Of a DNA stretch of 64,000 bases, positions 25,235-30,815 are shown in pieces. The notes beneath the pieces were generated by a model. The model searched no databases and was not told where the DNA came from. It saw nothing but the letters and a program-made list of their open reading frames with translations. The position numbers and the translations under genes were made by a program. Position 1 is the stretch's first letter. Each line of letters opens with the position of its first letter. Where the stretch lies: assembly GCA_965218095.1 (NCBI GenBank), contig OZ244587.1, positions 1,888,001 to 1,952,000 of the forward strand. The letters run 5' to 3'. This stretch comes from Candidatus Poribacteria bacterium. Lineage in GTDB: Bacteria > Poribacteria > WGA-4E > PCPOR2b.

Positions 25235-26045
25235 GGTTCTGTTGACATTTCAAGGGAGCCATATAAGAGTGGAGACAAAGCTGAGAAATCCAAAATAACG
25301 GACAACTAGCTTCTCAAACCGAGAGAAGATACGACGATACCATTTTATCTTGTTGATGAAACATTCAACCCGATGTCTCTCTTTGTATAAGTGTTTGTCA
25401 TACGTTCTTTGGTCAACACGATGACTTTTTGGCGGTATCACCGCAATCACTCCATTCGCCTTGATAACCGCGATAAAAGCGTCCGAATCGTACCCCTTGT
25501 CTCCATCACTGTTATATCCGATTATCAACCCTTCTGCCTCAGTTATGTCATGTCTCTGACCGGGGGTCAGATGAATTCTTAGGGGATTGCCTAGTCCGTC
25601 AACTGTGATGTGATTTTTTGTACTGAAACCGCCCCGAGACCGACCTAATGCTTGGTTTTCAGTGCCACCCTTTTTTTTAAGGCGCCCGCCGCACACGGGT
25701 GAGCGCGGCAGATTGTACTGTCCACAATAAGCGACTCGATATCGGGGTCAGAGGCGAAGTGGGGGTGCATCTGTGTGAAGATACCTTTGTCGCACCATCG
25801 AGCAAAACGCTTGTAGCGGGTGTTCCATTTGCCATAGGTGTCTGGTAGAAGTCTCCATTGAGCCCCGCTACGAGTCACCCACAGGACGGCTTCGACGAAG
25901 CGGCGTGTAGCAGCTTCGTCGCCAACATAGATGGTGGGACAGCTTAGAAGAAACCGGTATATCTTATTCCATTGTTCATCAGATAAGGTTATTGGCGTCA
26001 TTCTTCTATTATGCCACAACCTTATACTCAAATGTCAACAGAATC
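25235..26045 (-). mobile_element. IS5-family (IS427-like) element; transposase in two ORFs joined at an A-run
   Basis: TIRs GGTTCTGTTGACATTT / AAATGTCAACAGAATC, TA flanks; [34 protein letters not shown]. Confidence 0.95.
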
Positions 26046-26512
26046 TAGTAAAAAAACGCTGTTTTATCGTTTCTCCACGGGGTCAAGACCCTTTTCGTAT
26101 TCCTACTGATTTAGGGGTGACCCCTGCGACCTATATCCCGAAAGGCAGGATAATAACCTTGTAGCCGCATTAGGTCCTACCTGTCACCAAATAAGGAAAG
26201 CCATAAGTAGACGATTACAGAATATGGCAGAAAGTGAGTAGTCATGAGCGATTGAACCGGGTGACTAAAGTGCAAAAGTAGAATTGACAAGGCTTCAAGC
26301 ACTTGTGGGACGAGAAAAAGCGAGCAGAAAATTGACGAAAGAATCTCTCCCCATTGCCGCTTGAGAGCACCAATCGCTTTGTCTCGCTTCGGCCATCTTA
26401 TCCGATGTTTGACTTTGGCTAACAGAAAATACAACACGGCCCGGCATATGATGTGACCTCCCCAGAAGCGACCAAACCCAAAACTCAAGCTTACATTGAA
26501 AGGAGTTTTTCC

Positions 26513-28094
26513 ATGAAAACCTTACAGATCTTCTTTGTGTGTCTGATTTTAGGAATCGGACAGGTGACCGTAACCCACGCCGCCGAAGTTAAGTTCCTCC
26601 CGGAGGACATAGGCCAAGGTGACTGGTTTGGATTCTCCGTCTCCATCAGCGGGGACACCGTCATCGCCGGGACTCCGTTCAACGCGGGAACAGGCTCCGC
26701 CTATATCTCCGTATTCGACAATGGGAATTGGATACAGGAGGCGAAACTGGTCGCCGCCGACCTAGCTGCAAAAAACTGGTTTGGATTTTCTGTCTCCATC
26801 AGCGAGGCTAACGCCATTGTCGGCGCTCCACTTCACAATGTTGCCGATGTAAAATGGACAGGCGCGGCGTATATTTTCGTGCGTAAAGTAAAGGGTCAGC
26901 GAGCAGAATGGGAAGAGCAGGCGAAACTCATTGCCAAGGACGCAGGGAAAGAGGACGAGTTCGGATATGCCGTTGCCATCAGCGGGGACACTGCCATCAT
27001 TGGAGCGCATCTAGACAGCCATGAGGGGGCAGAAAAGGCTGGCTCTGCCTACATCTTCGTTCGCGAGAGGGACGGTTGGAAACAGCAGGCAAAGCTTATT
27101 GCCAGCGACGCCGCGGAAAAGGACGAGTTCGGGAGATCCGTCGCCATTCACAAGAACACTGTCATCATCGGAGCGCATCTAGACGATGATAGCGGCAGCA
27201 AGTCCGGCGCGGCGTATATCTTCGCGTGGGAGGGGGAGGCGTGGAGTGAGCAGGCAAAGCTTACCACCAGCGACGCCGCCGCACGTGACGAGTTCGGAAC
27301 TTCCGTCGCCATCAGCGGACGCTCCGTCATCGTCGGATCACCATTGGACGATGATGCCGGCAGCAAGTCCGGTTCGGCGTATATCTTCGCGCGCAACGGG
27401 GGCGTGGAGTGAGCAGGTGAAACTTACCGCCAGCGACGCGGCGGCAGGCGCCCAGTTCGGCGCCGCTGTCGCCTTCGACGTGAATCGGATCATCGTCGGG
27501 GCGCCATTGCACGATGCTTCCAAAGCGGATATGGGCACCGCCTATGCCTTTTTACGGGTTGATGGGGCGTGGGTTGAGCAGTCAAAGACCACCCACAAGA
27601 AAGCAGAGGAAGCGGATGAGTTCGGACATGCCGTTGCCGTCGTCACAGCCCATAGGAAAAATCTTCGTGCTGCAGGAGGACCATGTTGTGATTTCGGAGT
27701 CGATGGCGGGGCAGCGTATATGTATGATGCCACAAAAGATCTTAGTATACCTCTCTCCGTCGAGCCGGCTTTCTTGACGACGACTACGTTGGGGCAGGTC
27801 AAGCAGTCGGCATTGCTTCAAAACTTCCCCAATCCGTTTAATCCAGAAACATGGATGCCGTATGTGTTAGCCGCCGATGCCAAAGTGACCATTCGTATCT
27901 ACGATGTGCAAGGACAACTTGTCCGTCAGTTAGCGCCCGGTTTGCGACAAGCGGGCAGTTATCTCAGCCGAGAAACCGCGGCGTATTGGGATGGCAAAGA
28001 CCGATTCGGAGAGGCGGTTTCGAGTGGCATCTATTTCTACACGCTTAAGGCTAGCGCTTTCCAAGCCACCCGACGAATGGTCATCTTGAAATAG
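26513..28094 (+). pseudogene. Secreted FG-GAP repeat protein with a Poribacteria-type C-terminal domain, frameshifted near 27400
   Basis: Signal peptide; repeated FG.SVAISG..IIGA..D..GSAYIF; C-terminal LLQNFPNPFNPETWMPY lies in a different frame. Confidence 0.85.
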
Positions 28095-28219
28095 TATCAA
28101 ATGACCAGATGATGGTTGGAATGCTGATGTCTATTGCCTTCCAGCCATCACCCATGAGCGGGTTGGATTGGGTGAACTCGCATCTCCTTCGAGAAATGGA
28201 TACGCTTGGATATAAGCGT
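28095..28219 (-). ncRNA. Predicted ~125-nt structured RNA from the element's non-coding end
   Basis: Lies downstream of a near-consensus promoter; four consecutive hairpins; no ORF. Confidence 0.55.
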
Positions 28220-28224
28220 AACGA

Positions 28225-28253
28225 AGTATAGCAAAAAAGATAGCGGGTGTCAA
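28225..28253 (-). promoter_or_regulatory. Sigma70 promoter TTGACA-N17-TATACT with extended -10 TG
   Basis: -35 at 28253-28248, -10 at 28230-28225. Confidence 0.8.
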
Positions 28254-28320
28254 ACCAATCTTCAAGTAAAATTACGATGTTTTGTTGGGCAAAACGCTAA
28301 GCAACGTTTGTCCGATTTTA

Positions 28321-29213
28321 TCATTGGGGGTCTCCTGTAGGTTCGGAACGGAACAGGGTGTTGGCATCTTTACAGCTTTCTGATTCGGTTGCTAAGTTAG
28401 CGTCCATGTCATCAAGCGAATGTTGAGGAATCAGGTCAAGATATTGAGAGATGACGCGTTTGGAGAGCCGGGTAATCTGAGAGATTTTGTCAATATCCTC
28501 CGTAGCGGCACGAACCGTCTTAACGGACTCATAATCGCGAATGTATCGGTCAACCGCTTCTTTAGAGTGGCTGGTTTTGGCAGCAGATGCCCTTGGAGAT
28601 AGAGGGTAACAATCTCTTTCTTGTGGGTAATCGCTCCCGATAAATCATGGATATTGCCCCGGGTGGGCAAGAGTTTTCCACTATTTTTTTGCCACTCATT
28701 GACATAGTCGCTGACGATGGCATCACAGATATTGAGCAACACAGCTAGGTCGAGTTGGGTCAATAATGCGCCTTGGTCATAGGCTTGATAACACCATCGG
28801 ACTAATCAATTGATTCTGAGTTGCCGGGAAGTAAAACCGTTGCGAAAGGATTCAATATCCTCAGAAGCGAGGTAGGTCAGAACAACCAGCTTCATAGCGG
28901 TTTTGACGATTGACTTCCCTTTTTGTGGGTATTCATCAATCGGCACAGCCATCCGGACCAATTGCCCATAACTGAGCATTCGCTGATTAGGGATTTGGTC
29001 TCCTGTGGCGAGTTTCTCAAGGGGGAGGGCAATCAAGAAATAGCCTTCAATGGTTTTGACAATGTCATCAACAATGACAGCCGCCGTGACTTCTCCTTTG
29101 TCATAACCGTAAGAATTGATAAAGCGATGAATTAGTAGCTATTGCAGGGATTTATCATTGAGGCGTCTGAATTTCTTCTCGTTGACTTCGGTTCGAGTCA
29201 AGGGTTTACTCAT
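28321..29213 (-). pseudogene. Second DUF1670-like gene (two nonsense codons and one frameshift)
   Basis: ATGA overlap with ORF1; TAG at 29139-41, TGA at 28806-08, frameshift near 28580; QAYDQGALLTQLDLA, PTRGNIHD, THKK, HSKEAVDRY. Confidence 0.8.
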
Positions 29214-30010
29214 GAGGGGTTCCCCTTTTCCGCATCAACCGGTTCCGGGTGAAGGAGTTGAGTCATTCGTTGTGTTTGTTGGTACTCATCATATAGCAAG
29301 AGATACTCCCGAATTAGTCGGTCCGATAGATGCGTAATGAGCCGTATCTGTCCCTTTGGAAAGCCTTGATGATGGAGGCTTGCTACCTGTGTGAAATCGC
29401 GCAAGTATCGCCAGACCGCTCGTTGGGTATGATTAGTCTTTTGCTCAATTTCAGTGAACTGATACCCTTTGAAGTACAATTCCAGAATCTGAGTCTTATG
29501 AGAGATGCCAGGCCCCATGTCATGTTTGGCACCGCGAGTCATAACAAAGTAACCGTCCTGTTTCAACTGTCGAATGTCGCGCTTGACGGTCGCTGGACTG
29601 GTGGTTAATAGCACCGCTAAATCTTCATAGCTGAGCAGGGCATCTTGGTCATAGGCTTGTTTGGTTAATCGGAGAATTCGATGGCGTCTGAGTCCAGAAA
29701 GCCCATAATCGGCTAACATCTCAAGGTCAGTTTGGACATCATTGAGAGTGAGTTGACATGAGACTTTTTTCGCTAACGCGATATGTTTGCCTGCCGGTTC
29801 ATCGGCTGCGACTGCCTCATAGCAGATTTGGCCTGACGTGAGTTCAATTTCGGCATGTTGAGCAAAGTAGGAAGCAATCTGTTTATAGTAGGCTTCGGCA
29901 ATCAGTGGCATTAGATTAAAGTCTGATGAAATCTTCTGAATGATGGCTGCCCTTGCGGTCTTTGATTGTAGACGGTTGATACCGTAGGCTGTATTGCTTT
30001 GTGGTTTCAT
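29210..30010 (-). CDS. DUF1670-like protein
   Basis: RILRLTKQAYDQDALLSYEDLAVLL..S..TVKRDI, TRGAKHDMGPGISHK; GGAGG RBS; upstream TTGTAT-N17-TAAACT. Confidence 0.8.
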   Translation of the reverse strand: MKPQSNTAYGINRLQSKTARAAIIQKISSDFNLMPLIAEAYYKQIASYFAQHAEIELTSGQICYEAVAADEPAGKHIALAKKVSCQLTLNDVQTDLEMLADYGLSGLRRHRILRLTKQAYDQDALLSYEDLAVLLTTSPATVKRDIRQLKQDGYFVMTRGAKHDMGPGISHKTQILELYFKGYQFTEIEQKTNHTQRAVWRYLRDFTQVASLHHQGFPKGQIRLITHLSDRLIREYLLLYDEYQQTQRMTQLLHPEPVDAEKGNPS

Positions 30011-30138
30011 ATTGACCTCCATGAGTGGATTGTAGTTGATGGCAATACCATCTCCTTTTAGTTTAGCTCATGGGGTCATTTGATACAAACTATAAATAGA
30101 AGGAGCGTATTGTAACGCGCACCGATTGTTTTGATTTG

Positions 30139-30167
30139 GCCCGCATCTCAGTAATGCAGGCTTTTTT
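30139..30167 (+). terminator. Probable intrinsic terminator of the FG-GAP gene, displaced by the element
   Basis: GCCCGCAT-loop-ATGCAGGC followed by a T-run. Confidence 0.5.
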
Positions 30168-30815
30168 CATAGAAAATTCGTGCCTCCCTATCAAGGGGAA
30201 TTATTTGCTATTGTGGAGAGCACGAAGCCAGATATCGTTATCTACACGAACGTAAGCGCAAGAAGTCGTATGGGCAACAGGTAGCGCGGGCTTCAAATCC
30301 GGTCAATGGAGTCGGCGCAGACCGGGTGGTGAGCGTCTAAATCATACCATTTGCAGCGAATCCAGACTTCGGAAGTTTTCCGCAGGATCGTTTCGATTCA
30401 AACCACGCGCAAAACTTCTGAAGGCTTAAACAGTGAAGGAACTCGCCCTTCTAGTGGCACCTGAGCTGCTCACGGATTTGACGTGTCGCTTTATCGATTC
30501 CCTGTTTTTGATGCAGCGTCAAAAACCTCCAGTCAATAGATTGGTGGCATGCATGAATTTTAGGAAGCAAAGTTGTTCTTACCTTTCGCGTAATCCCGAG
30601 GAAGTTTTTTTAATTTCGGAGTCCGAATCCGCACGTAGCACGGATCTAATAATCGGCCGTTTCACTTGAGAAACACGACCTTTGCGGTGATGTGGCAATC
30701 CATCGAATCGGGAGGGAACTCCTGCTACGACTGGATCTAAAAATTAGAAAAATTGTTCCGAAATAATGCGAAAGGTCAGCTAAAGGCTACACATTACGCA
30801 TTTCGGAGATGTTTG

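Follow-up and report, generated by a model that had tools for sequence, protein, structure and literature searches.

Insertion sequences (ISs) of the IS110/IS1111 type use a DEDD transposase together with a bridge or seek RNA; terminal repeats are typically lacking, and in IS1111 they are sub-terminal. A mobile element of about 2 kb in the genome of a Candidatus Poribacteria bacterium shares several features with this group. It lies in a stretch of 64,000 nucleotides (nt), called the window below (positions 1,888,001 to 1,952,000 of contig OZ244587.1, assembly GCA_965218095.1), within a single 6.35-Mb contig, and its two open reading frames (ORF1 and ORF2) both encode proteins of the Pfam family DUF1670 (PF07900). 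As in IS110/IS1111, insertion is site-specific and sometimes occurs in repeated palindromes, a 2-nt core is common to junction and target, and the regulatory logic of the element would suit a circular intermediate. The differences are terminal inverted repeats, no match to a DEDD or RuvC-like model, no sign of an RNA guide, and a target class that follows the protein ORF2. We lean towards the view that the DUF1670 pair is the complete transposition machinery of an autonomous site-specific element, and we infer that it also carries out catalysis.

Several other groups invite comparison. Serine-recombinase elements (IS607, Hin/Gin) have a 2-bp crossover dinucleotide in a short dyad and bind DNA through helix-turn-helix (HTH) motifs. 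The termini of the Poribacteria element, if joined end to end, would give the dyad ACTAT-AA-ATAGT, which likewise holds a 2-bp dinucleotide, and HTH modules are present. In contrast to serine recombinases, there is no match to a resolvase model, no alpha/beta domain in the structural model of ORF1, and no conserved serine among the N-terminal invariant or near-invariant columns. IS630/Tc1-mariner elements combine terminal repeats and a 2-bp TA flank with one protein that contains several HTH motifs and a DDE/RNase H domain. Terminal repeats, a fixed 2-bp flanking duplicate, and several HTHs are found here as well, but AA takes the place of TA, the HTHs are followed by no DDE/RNase H domain, and there are two paralogous proteins. 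HUH elements (IS200/IS605, IS91) have an HUH motif with a catalytic tyrosine and sub-terminal hairpins but no terminal repeats, whereas the present element has terminal repeats and no Pfam HUH match.

In Tn7, the target selector TnsD acts at attTn7, the 3' end of a gene; catalytic and ATPase proteins are separate, and a 5-bp duplication is made. The parallel with TnsD lies in a DNA-binding protein that would pick the conserved coding 3' end of a gene, which is left intact (a 'safe harbour'), whereas the Poribacteria element encodes nothing beyond its two HTH proteins and has a flank of 2 bp. A subclass of IS1202 that is reported to target XerCD sites also strongly prefers one conserved, repeated type of site; there, the transposase is a recognised one and the targets are Xer sites, not gene ends (bioRxiv 10.1101/2022.12.17.520857).

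A mobile element at the end of a T9SS cargo gene

The element proper occupies window positions 28091-30093 (2003 bp), with its genes on the minus strand; the ends were set by comparison of copies in this genome and in relatives, and an empty paralogous site confirms them. It stands at the stop codon of a gene (3' part 27186-28094, plus strand) for an FG-GAP repeat protein that ends in ...RRMVILK* and carries a C-terminal sorting domain (CTD) of the type IX secretion system (T9SS; TIGR04183 Por_Secre_tail, 30.3 bits with a cut-off of 23, amino acids 214-300). The left flanking AA (28089-28090) consists of the first two bases of the last lysine codon of this gene; the third base of the codon and the TAG stop are now supplied by the element. 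Beyond the other end come the right flanking AA (30094-30095), the second copy of a duplicated or crossover dinucleotide, and the original ATAG of the target gene (30096-30099, plus strand), comprising the third base of the lysine codon and the original stop, displaced 2 kb downstream. A terminator-like hairpin with a T-run (30139-30167, plus strand), read by eye and not listed by the terminator scan, has been parted from the gene by the insertion.

Is this insert mobile? A natural empty site is provided by a segmental paralogue elsewhere in this genome (C1 ~1564865-1565400, minus strand), in which both flanks, a single AAATAG, and the same hairpin and T-run are present without the element. 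The original prediction, made from the sequence of the window, had described a ~2-kb insert with perfect 13-bp inverted repeats whose removal restores a sequence followed by a terminator, and this observation is confirmed. The genome contains four copies of the element, with 99.7-100% identity, and one solo left end. Near-identical copies stand beside unrelated upstream genes and unrelated right flanks, and all five left ends adjoin genes ending in ...M(V/L)(I/L)LK*; a loose pattern for such gene ends occurs at 22 places in the genome, five of which carry an element end. The window copy alone is uninterrupted; the other three contain IS4-, IS5-, or IS630-like insertions. The solo left end (locus L008; G000 C1:665855-665882) is a 28-nt left junction (AA plus 26 nt) with a T9SS-type gene end on one side and unique DNA on the other; it is the scar of a lost copy.

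The window element is, therefore, a mobile, multi-copy 2-kb element. It shows the generic traits of insertion sequences, namely terminal inverted repeats, a short flanking duplicate, several copies, and both filled and empty sites. It belongs to a real IS-like family that is unclassified by the libraries searched (ISfinder was not among them), as expected for the new family that had been proposed. In the accessible part of the literature on insertion sequences and transposases of Poribacteria, nothing relevant was found.

The exact boundaries required some revision of the first description. The inverted repeat arms (28094-28112 and 30068-30086) are 19 nt long with 89% complementarity and a 13-nt perfect core. 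The left inverted repeat (IRL, ATAGTATCAAATGACC, 28091-28106) adjoins the target gene, and the right inverted repeat (IRR, GGTCATTTGATACAAACTAT, 30074-30093) lies at the ORF1 end. The two repeats, ATAGTATCAAATGACC and GGTCATTTGATAC-AAAC-TAT, are terminal, and the right one carries four extra bases (AAAC). The sub-terminal position once assigned to them, with offsets of 7 versus about 3 nt, arose from this 4-nt indel. Both repeats are altered alike in two lineages (L074; L093/L094), and the arms of L095-L097 differ at one position.

What is duplicated on insertion? AAATAG is indeed present at both ends (28089-28094 and 30094-30099), as first noticed, but it is not a 6-bp duplication. Both ends were found in 69 of the 80 loci fetched from this genome and its relatives, and all 69 have the layout [target]AA-ATAGTATCAAATGACC ... 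GGTCATTTGATACAAACTAT-AA[target], so that only AA is duplicated across the element. The left junction is constant (AA followed by ATAG, the first four bases of the element), whereas the four bases 3' of the right AA differ by target (ATAG, GTAG, ATAA, GTAA, GTGA, AAAA, ACGC, or ATCA). Copies c3 and c4 in this genome have AAATAG at the left and AAGTAG at the right. At window positions 28888 and 30096, all four allele combinations occur among the four local copies, which fits the derivation of 30096 from the target. By these alignments, the apparent 6-bp repeat is a 2-bp AA extended by a resemblance that is due to chance or selection: the ATAG of the element replaces the gene's own RTAR. The AA may reflect either a 2-bp target duplication or a conservative crossover on a 2-bp core; the sequence fits both.

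Contigs of public runs were also searched for other forms of the locus. Logan contigs contain a joint from 28095 to 30101 (depth 27.8 in X1 and 10.3 in X3; 34 nt on the short side), which is not counted as an empty allele because the empty paralogue explains it equally well. No go-back joint, as a circle or tandem would give, was seen in these contigs. Logan contigs from RNA libraries cover parts of the element, which is no evidence of transcription. No orthologous empty site was found in relatives, the right flank being conserved only in this genome, and a search of a plasmid collection gave no match to the element.

Insertion targets

The 68 distinct insertions fall into 50 of class A, 16 of class B, and two others. 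In class A, the AA begins the last lysine codon of a T9SS-CTD gene, with the consensus ..ACgCGgAAaATG.T.ATtctg-AA-gTAa. The host gene stays intact since the element supplies a new A plus TAG; this is a 'safe harbour' strategy in which the conserved last codons of T9SS cargo genes are used and the stop codon is replaced by the element's own. The element is abundant in sponge-symbiont Poribacteria, behind WD40, leucine-rich repeat (LRR), and FG-GAP 'eukaryote-like' genes. Among the targeted CTD genes, those beside L079, L097, L096, and others encode large WD40, LRR, and FG-GAP proteins of the 'eukaryote-like' kind typical of sponge symbionts. No report of T9SS gene ends or stop codons as an insertion target was found in the literature searched.

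Class-B insertions have the AA in the loop of a single palindrome, GAAACCGAGTTTTGaaG-AA-AAAACTCGGTTTC. Uninterrupted palindromes number 70 in genome G010 and 34 in G004; there are six A at the empty sites and eight at filled ones. In these two genomes the palindrome (AAACCGAGTTTTGAAGAAAAAACTCGGTTT) often forms arrays with a regular spacing of ~160, 193, or 352 bp (e.g., G010:C1:1894819-1897594 and 3456489-3457155).

These sites bear on the idea that there is no mobile element at all, and that a conserved two-gene regulatory cassette 3' of T9SS cargo genes has been spread by gene duplication. The proteins do look like transcription factors, and class A always adjoins the same kind of gene. Gene duplication fits poorly, however, with near-identical copies beside unrelated genes on both sides, with the paralogue that is empty while both flanks are intact, and with 16 insertions in a non-genic palindrome that also occurs empty, 70 times in one of these genomes and 34 times in the other. 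Exact boundaries, terminal repeats, and a patchy, multi-copy distribution also speak against it. The cassette is scarcely credible, and the filled and empty sites refute it in practice.

Distribution and age of the family

The element aligns end to end with copies in other Candidatus Poribacteria at 75-86% DNA identity. ORF1 is present in 10 of 41 related genomes, with up to five copies in each. Of 176 Poribacteria genomes, 100 contain the signature of AA plus IRL, with as many as 20 occurrences in one genome; the reversed control pattern gave none. When ten such sites were inspected in genomes without ORF1, all ten proved to be truncated left-end remnants of ~18-99 nt, some internally deleted, at the same type of gene end. 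Widespread truncated remnants of this kind indicate a family that is old, widespread, and often decayed. Four remnants (L133, L134, L136, and L138, in G023 and G003) have a common internal deletion, in which ~60-99 nt of the left end are joined to element positions ~766-900. This suggests a deletion derivative that itself spread.

Outside Poribacteria, a copy in an Ignavibacteria metagenome-assembled genome (MAG; ORF1 61% identical) follows a gene ending in ...KMLLVK, and a truncated copy in a MAG titled 'uncultured Bacteroides sp.' follows one ending in ...TVVLLK; the termini of both are near-identical to those in Poribacteria. The gene-end target, used also in these two MAGs, is old. Many DUF1670 homologues are found on contigs of ~2.0 kb, and one MAG has three separate contigs of 2.1-2.3 kb with a pair on each, which is the look of a collapsed repeat in an assembly. 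The DUF1670 family as a whole is large (1227 clusters at 50% identity) and extends over many bacterial phyla as well as Methanosarcina. The names encountered at NCBI are 'DUF1670 domain-containing protein', PF07900 has no assigned function, and no paper naming DUF1670 or PF07900 was found in the literature searched. The locus and its relatives give DUF1670 a testable role, as the machinery of a precise site-specific mobile element.

The two DUF1670 proteins

ORF1 (29210-30022, minus strand) encodes an intact DUF1670 protein of 270 amino acids (212.2 bits with a cut-off of 25, E 7.9e-63), with an HTH_11 match at residues 123-162. ORF2 (28321-29213, minus strand), whose start at 29213 overlaps the stop of ORF1 in the sequence ATGA, is a pseudogene in the window copy, with two stops (TAG 29141-29139 and TGA 28808-28806) and a frameshift near 28587-28575 before its end at 28323-28321. 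Its fragments match PF07900 with 67.5 bits (E 1.4e-18) and 21.9 bits (E 1.2e-4, below the family cut-off of 25). In relatives ORF2 is intact, with ~285-301 amino acids. The two families are full-length paralogues (hhalign probability 100%, E 1.6e-39, 241 columns), and both genes are under strong purifying selection (dN/dS, the ratio of nonsynonymous to synonymous changes, of 0.07-0.14 in six of six pairs). The membership in DUF1670, the translational coupling, and the decay of this ORF2 had all been recognised correctly in the original prediction.

Do the elements carry anything else? In 11 diverse elements, the two DUF1670 frames are the sole conserved ORFs; other open frames are at most 156 amino acids long and shift in position, and there is no third conserved ORF. 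The pair was rightly taken to be the only cargo. Natural fusions string two or three DUF1670 modules together and have no further Pfam domain, and in the class-B element L099 ORF1 and ORF2 form a single open frame of 579 amino acids. Within this genome, tblastn and the PF07900 model found no DUF1670 genes outside the element copies. In the leader of ORF1 there is a small palindrome, GATGG-N5-CCATC (30038-30052, from a structure scan), the arms of which vary together in some elements, as judged by eye in an alignment of eight.

The AlphaFold2 model of ORF1 (73 sequences) has a mean predicted local confidence (pLDDT) of 89 and a predicted template-modelling score (pTM) of 0.61. It has three N-terminal helices, a beta-hairpin (65-72/86-92) with a conserved EPAGK loop, and a long helix (96-125), followed by a winged HTH (~128-168) and further HTHs at 175-218 and 223-247. 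Apart from the single beta-hairpin the model is helical, with no alpha/beta catalytic domain. A comparison with 48,161 chains by VIA-align gave a best Z of 6.8, and all matches were winged-HTH or HTH domains: NiaR, BirA, Z-alpha, and LexA for residues 105-168, and TrpR, Mu Mor/C, and sigma region 4 for residues 172-259. A sequence profile gave weak HTH matches only against PDB sequences, as did PHROGs (HTH regulators), and an NCBIfam search of ORF1 and ORF2 gave only a sub-threshold match to the BirA HTH. For the N-terminal 108 residues of 16 homologues, Pfam at E <= 10 returned DUF1670 and chance matches only.

The invariant or near-invariant polar residues, in ORF1 numbering, are R118, R163, D168, S174, H175, K176, H198, and Y206; the only near-invariant acidic residues in ORF1 are D99 and D134, and none of the invariant or near-invariant columns is an N-terminal serine. 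Neither protein matches a DEDD/RuvC-like or other transposase model in Pfam and NCBIfam, or a resolvase, integrase, DDE, or HUH model in Pfam, in agreement with the first reading of their motifs. A tyrosine integrase domain (R-K-H-R-H/W-Y) is absent among the fold matches of ORF1, in which residues 1-100 are barely covered, and junction and target share only 2 bp.

ORF2 and the choice of target

Which part of the element sets the target? The ORF2 protein has 11 discriminating columns, at which classes A and B are completely distinct, whereas ORF1 has none. Seven of them lie in ESFRNGFTSRQLRINR versus EHYYSGFSSRELRIHR, three in NVCDAVVSDY versus NVRDPVVSEY, and the remaining one is an isolated G/A column; the patches span columns 122-135 and 163-169 of the alignment. 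According to the alignment of the paralogues and the model of ORF1, the second patch (NVCDAVVSDY/NVRDPVVSEY) is the recognition helix of a winged HTH. At the DNA level, 49 unique whole elements (38 A, 9 B) have 11 separating columns, all of them coding, with one in ORF1 and ten in ORF2. No class-separating column was found in non-coding DNA, either in the tails (31 A and 5 B unique) or in the whole elements.

The two gene trees place the class-A element L045 differently. In the ORF2 tree, class B and the two 'other' cases form one clade (support 100/96), to which L045 is sister; in the tree of ORF1, it falls within the class-B elements. These comparisons point to ORF2 as the putative target-selecting protein. 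The sole observed retargeting maps to the recognition helix, which suggests a route to engineered target choice.

The 3' non-coding end

The 3' non-coding part is the least conserved region of the element. It contains an outward, sigma-70-like promoter (28253-28225, minus strand; TTGACA-17-TATACT, matching 11 of 12 consensus positions, plus an upstream TG), which is present in 38 of 38 unique 3' tails and is directed outwards across IRL, with an expected start of transcription near 28218. In an integrated copy its direction is antisense to the T9SS gene; by analogy with the junction promoters of other IS elements, it would drive ORF1 and ORF2 only across an end-to-end junction, in a circle or a tandem.

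A long non-coding 3' end was one reason for the earlier analogy with IS1111, according to which this end would encode a bridge or seek RNA that pairs with target and donor. The conserved promoter is followed by ~130 nt of non-coding sequence running into the element end, a 12-bp hairpin is predicted there in the tails of three close copies, and the site-specific insertion with a shared 2-nt core is reminiscent of IS110. The target class, however, tracks ORF2 columns and none in the non-coding ends, which argues against an RNA guide like that of IS1111. When each element was compared with its own target by 8-mers, there were scattered matches and no consistent site, RNAalifold on 38 tails found no shared structure beyond three pairs, and Rfam gave no match. 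Added to the terminal repeats, which the IS110 family typically lacks, and to the missing transposase model, these results make an IS110/IS1111-like element highly improbable, and an RNA guide for targeting was rejected.

Proposed mechanism and the question of catalysis

How might the pair work? In the favoured mechanism, ORF1 would bind the terminal repeats of 16/20 bp, ORF2 would read the target through its winged-helix recognition helix, and both together would link the ends of the element to an AA dinucleotide. In most insertions this is the AA of the last lysine codon in genes for T9SS-sorted proteins, where the element gives a new A plus TAG. A circular or tandem end-to-end junction would place the strong outward 3' promoter before ORF1-ORF2.

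A bolder version, which we put forward only tentatively, is that the pair represents a new class of transposase or recombinase, built of HTH modules without any of the five known catalytic folds. It would act as a hetero-oligomer on a 2-bp AA core, with the target set by a few residues of the ORF2 recognition helix, and would provide protein-programmable, gene-sparing integration. If DUF1670 proteins catalyse, they would be a sixth kind of transposase. If they only aim, the element would be one that borrows catalysis while bringing its own targeting.

Several observations weigh against a complete and autonomous machinery. The four local copies share the ORF2 defects and yet all are at canonical targets, the differences between them being single-base changes elsewhere; a defective element has, thus, multiplied. 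This would be explained if ORF2 is dispensable, if the element was helped in trans by a factor since lost, or if the copies were homogenised, and the shared defects weigh against ORF2 being essential. The link between ORF2 and target class goes back to one evolutionary switch and is not repeated evidence. Foldseek gave no match of the ORF1 model in the PDB at E <= 0.001, and no recombinase or nuclease fold or motif was recognised in ORF1. The check for a catalytic fold that had been proposed at the outset, thus, returned HTH modules and none that is catalytic; since residues 1-100 are barely covered by the fold search, the absence of any known catalytic fold is provisional.

The proposed check for circle junctions also came back negative in assembled sequence. 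The IRR-AA-IRL junction, searched as stretches of 29 nt and 22 nt taken from locus L032, had no match in JGI metagenome contigs, and the 22-nt stretch was found in one of 176 Poribacteria genomes, in L032 itself. Such missing junctions do not argue against circles because assemblies rarely hold them. At L032/L011 (G018:C1:247728-247749), a copy has inserted at the AA before an older, degenerate IRL remnant, which produced a natural IRR-AA-IRL junction; an occupied site can, thus, be hit again.

Could another enzyme exchange the strands? The element might be mobile without being catalytically autonomous, the DUF1670 pair recognising ends and target or acting as a regulator while a host recombinase or the transposase of another element performs catalysis, as with elements that exploit XerCD. 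The HTH-only model of ORF1 and the fusions that add no other domain would fit such a division of labour, as would the multiplication of ORF2-defective copies in a genome that is rich in other ISs, including those that interrupt three of the four copies. Other observations speak against it. Apart from the element copies, the 16-nt terminal repeat, with up to two mismatches, occurs in this genome only at two coincidental sites and an odd short site (C1:5338058), so that no other element carries the same repeats. The ORFs that flank the 68 insertions group into cargo families (WD40, LRR, and CTD), and no transposase recurs among them; the seven cluster representatives scanned are WD40, LRR, or CTD cargo or metabolic proteins. 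The separate known transposase that might always accompany such pairs was not found in these flanks, and the pairs in relatives have conserved repeats and filled and empty sites of their own. A compatible helper would also be needed in all hosts, as the same ends and target are found in the Ignavibacteria MAG and in the MAG titled 'uncultured Bacteroides sp.'. Finally, Xer-type tyrosine recombinases need an overlap of 6-8 bp, for which the 2 bp shared by junction and target are ill-suited. A borrowed catalytic activity is, on this evidence, less likely, and a self-sufficient DUF1670 pair is the reading that we retain.

Other features of the locus and the genome

The odd short site (G000 C1:5338040-5338100) follows a gene end ...ATKKL* and consists of AA, an IRL-like 16-mer with one mismatch, 9 nt, and the initial ~10 nt of an IRR-like sequence, and is possibly a footprint or a miniature derivative. 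In the window, the FG-GAP/T9SS-CTD target gene (26453-28094) is split near 27400 into overlapping ORFs in different frames (26453-27412 and 27186-28094), due to either a frameshift or an assembly error. Further upstream, at 25250-26031 (minus strand), lies an IS5-family element with a transposase split over two overlapping frames (NF033580, 105 + 135 bits), a close relative of which is the 851-bp insertion inside copy c4. On the other side of the DUF1670 element, a repeat of ~200 bp (~30578-30785) just upstream of a pheA-like gene is found at no fewer than six other sites in the genome with 71-95% identity and may be a miniature element.

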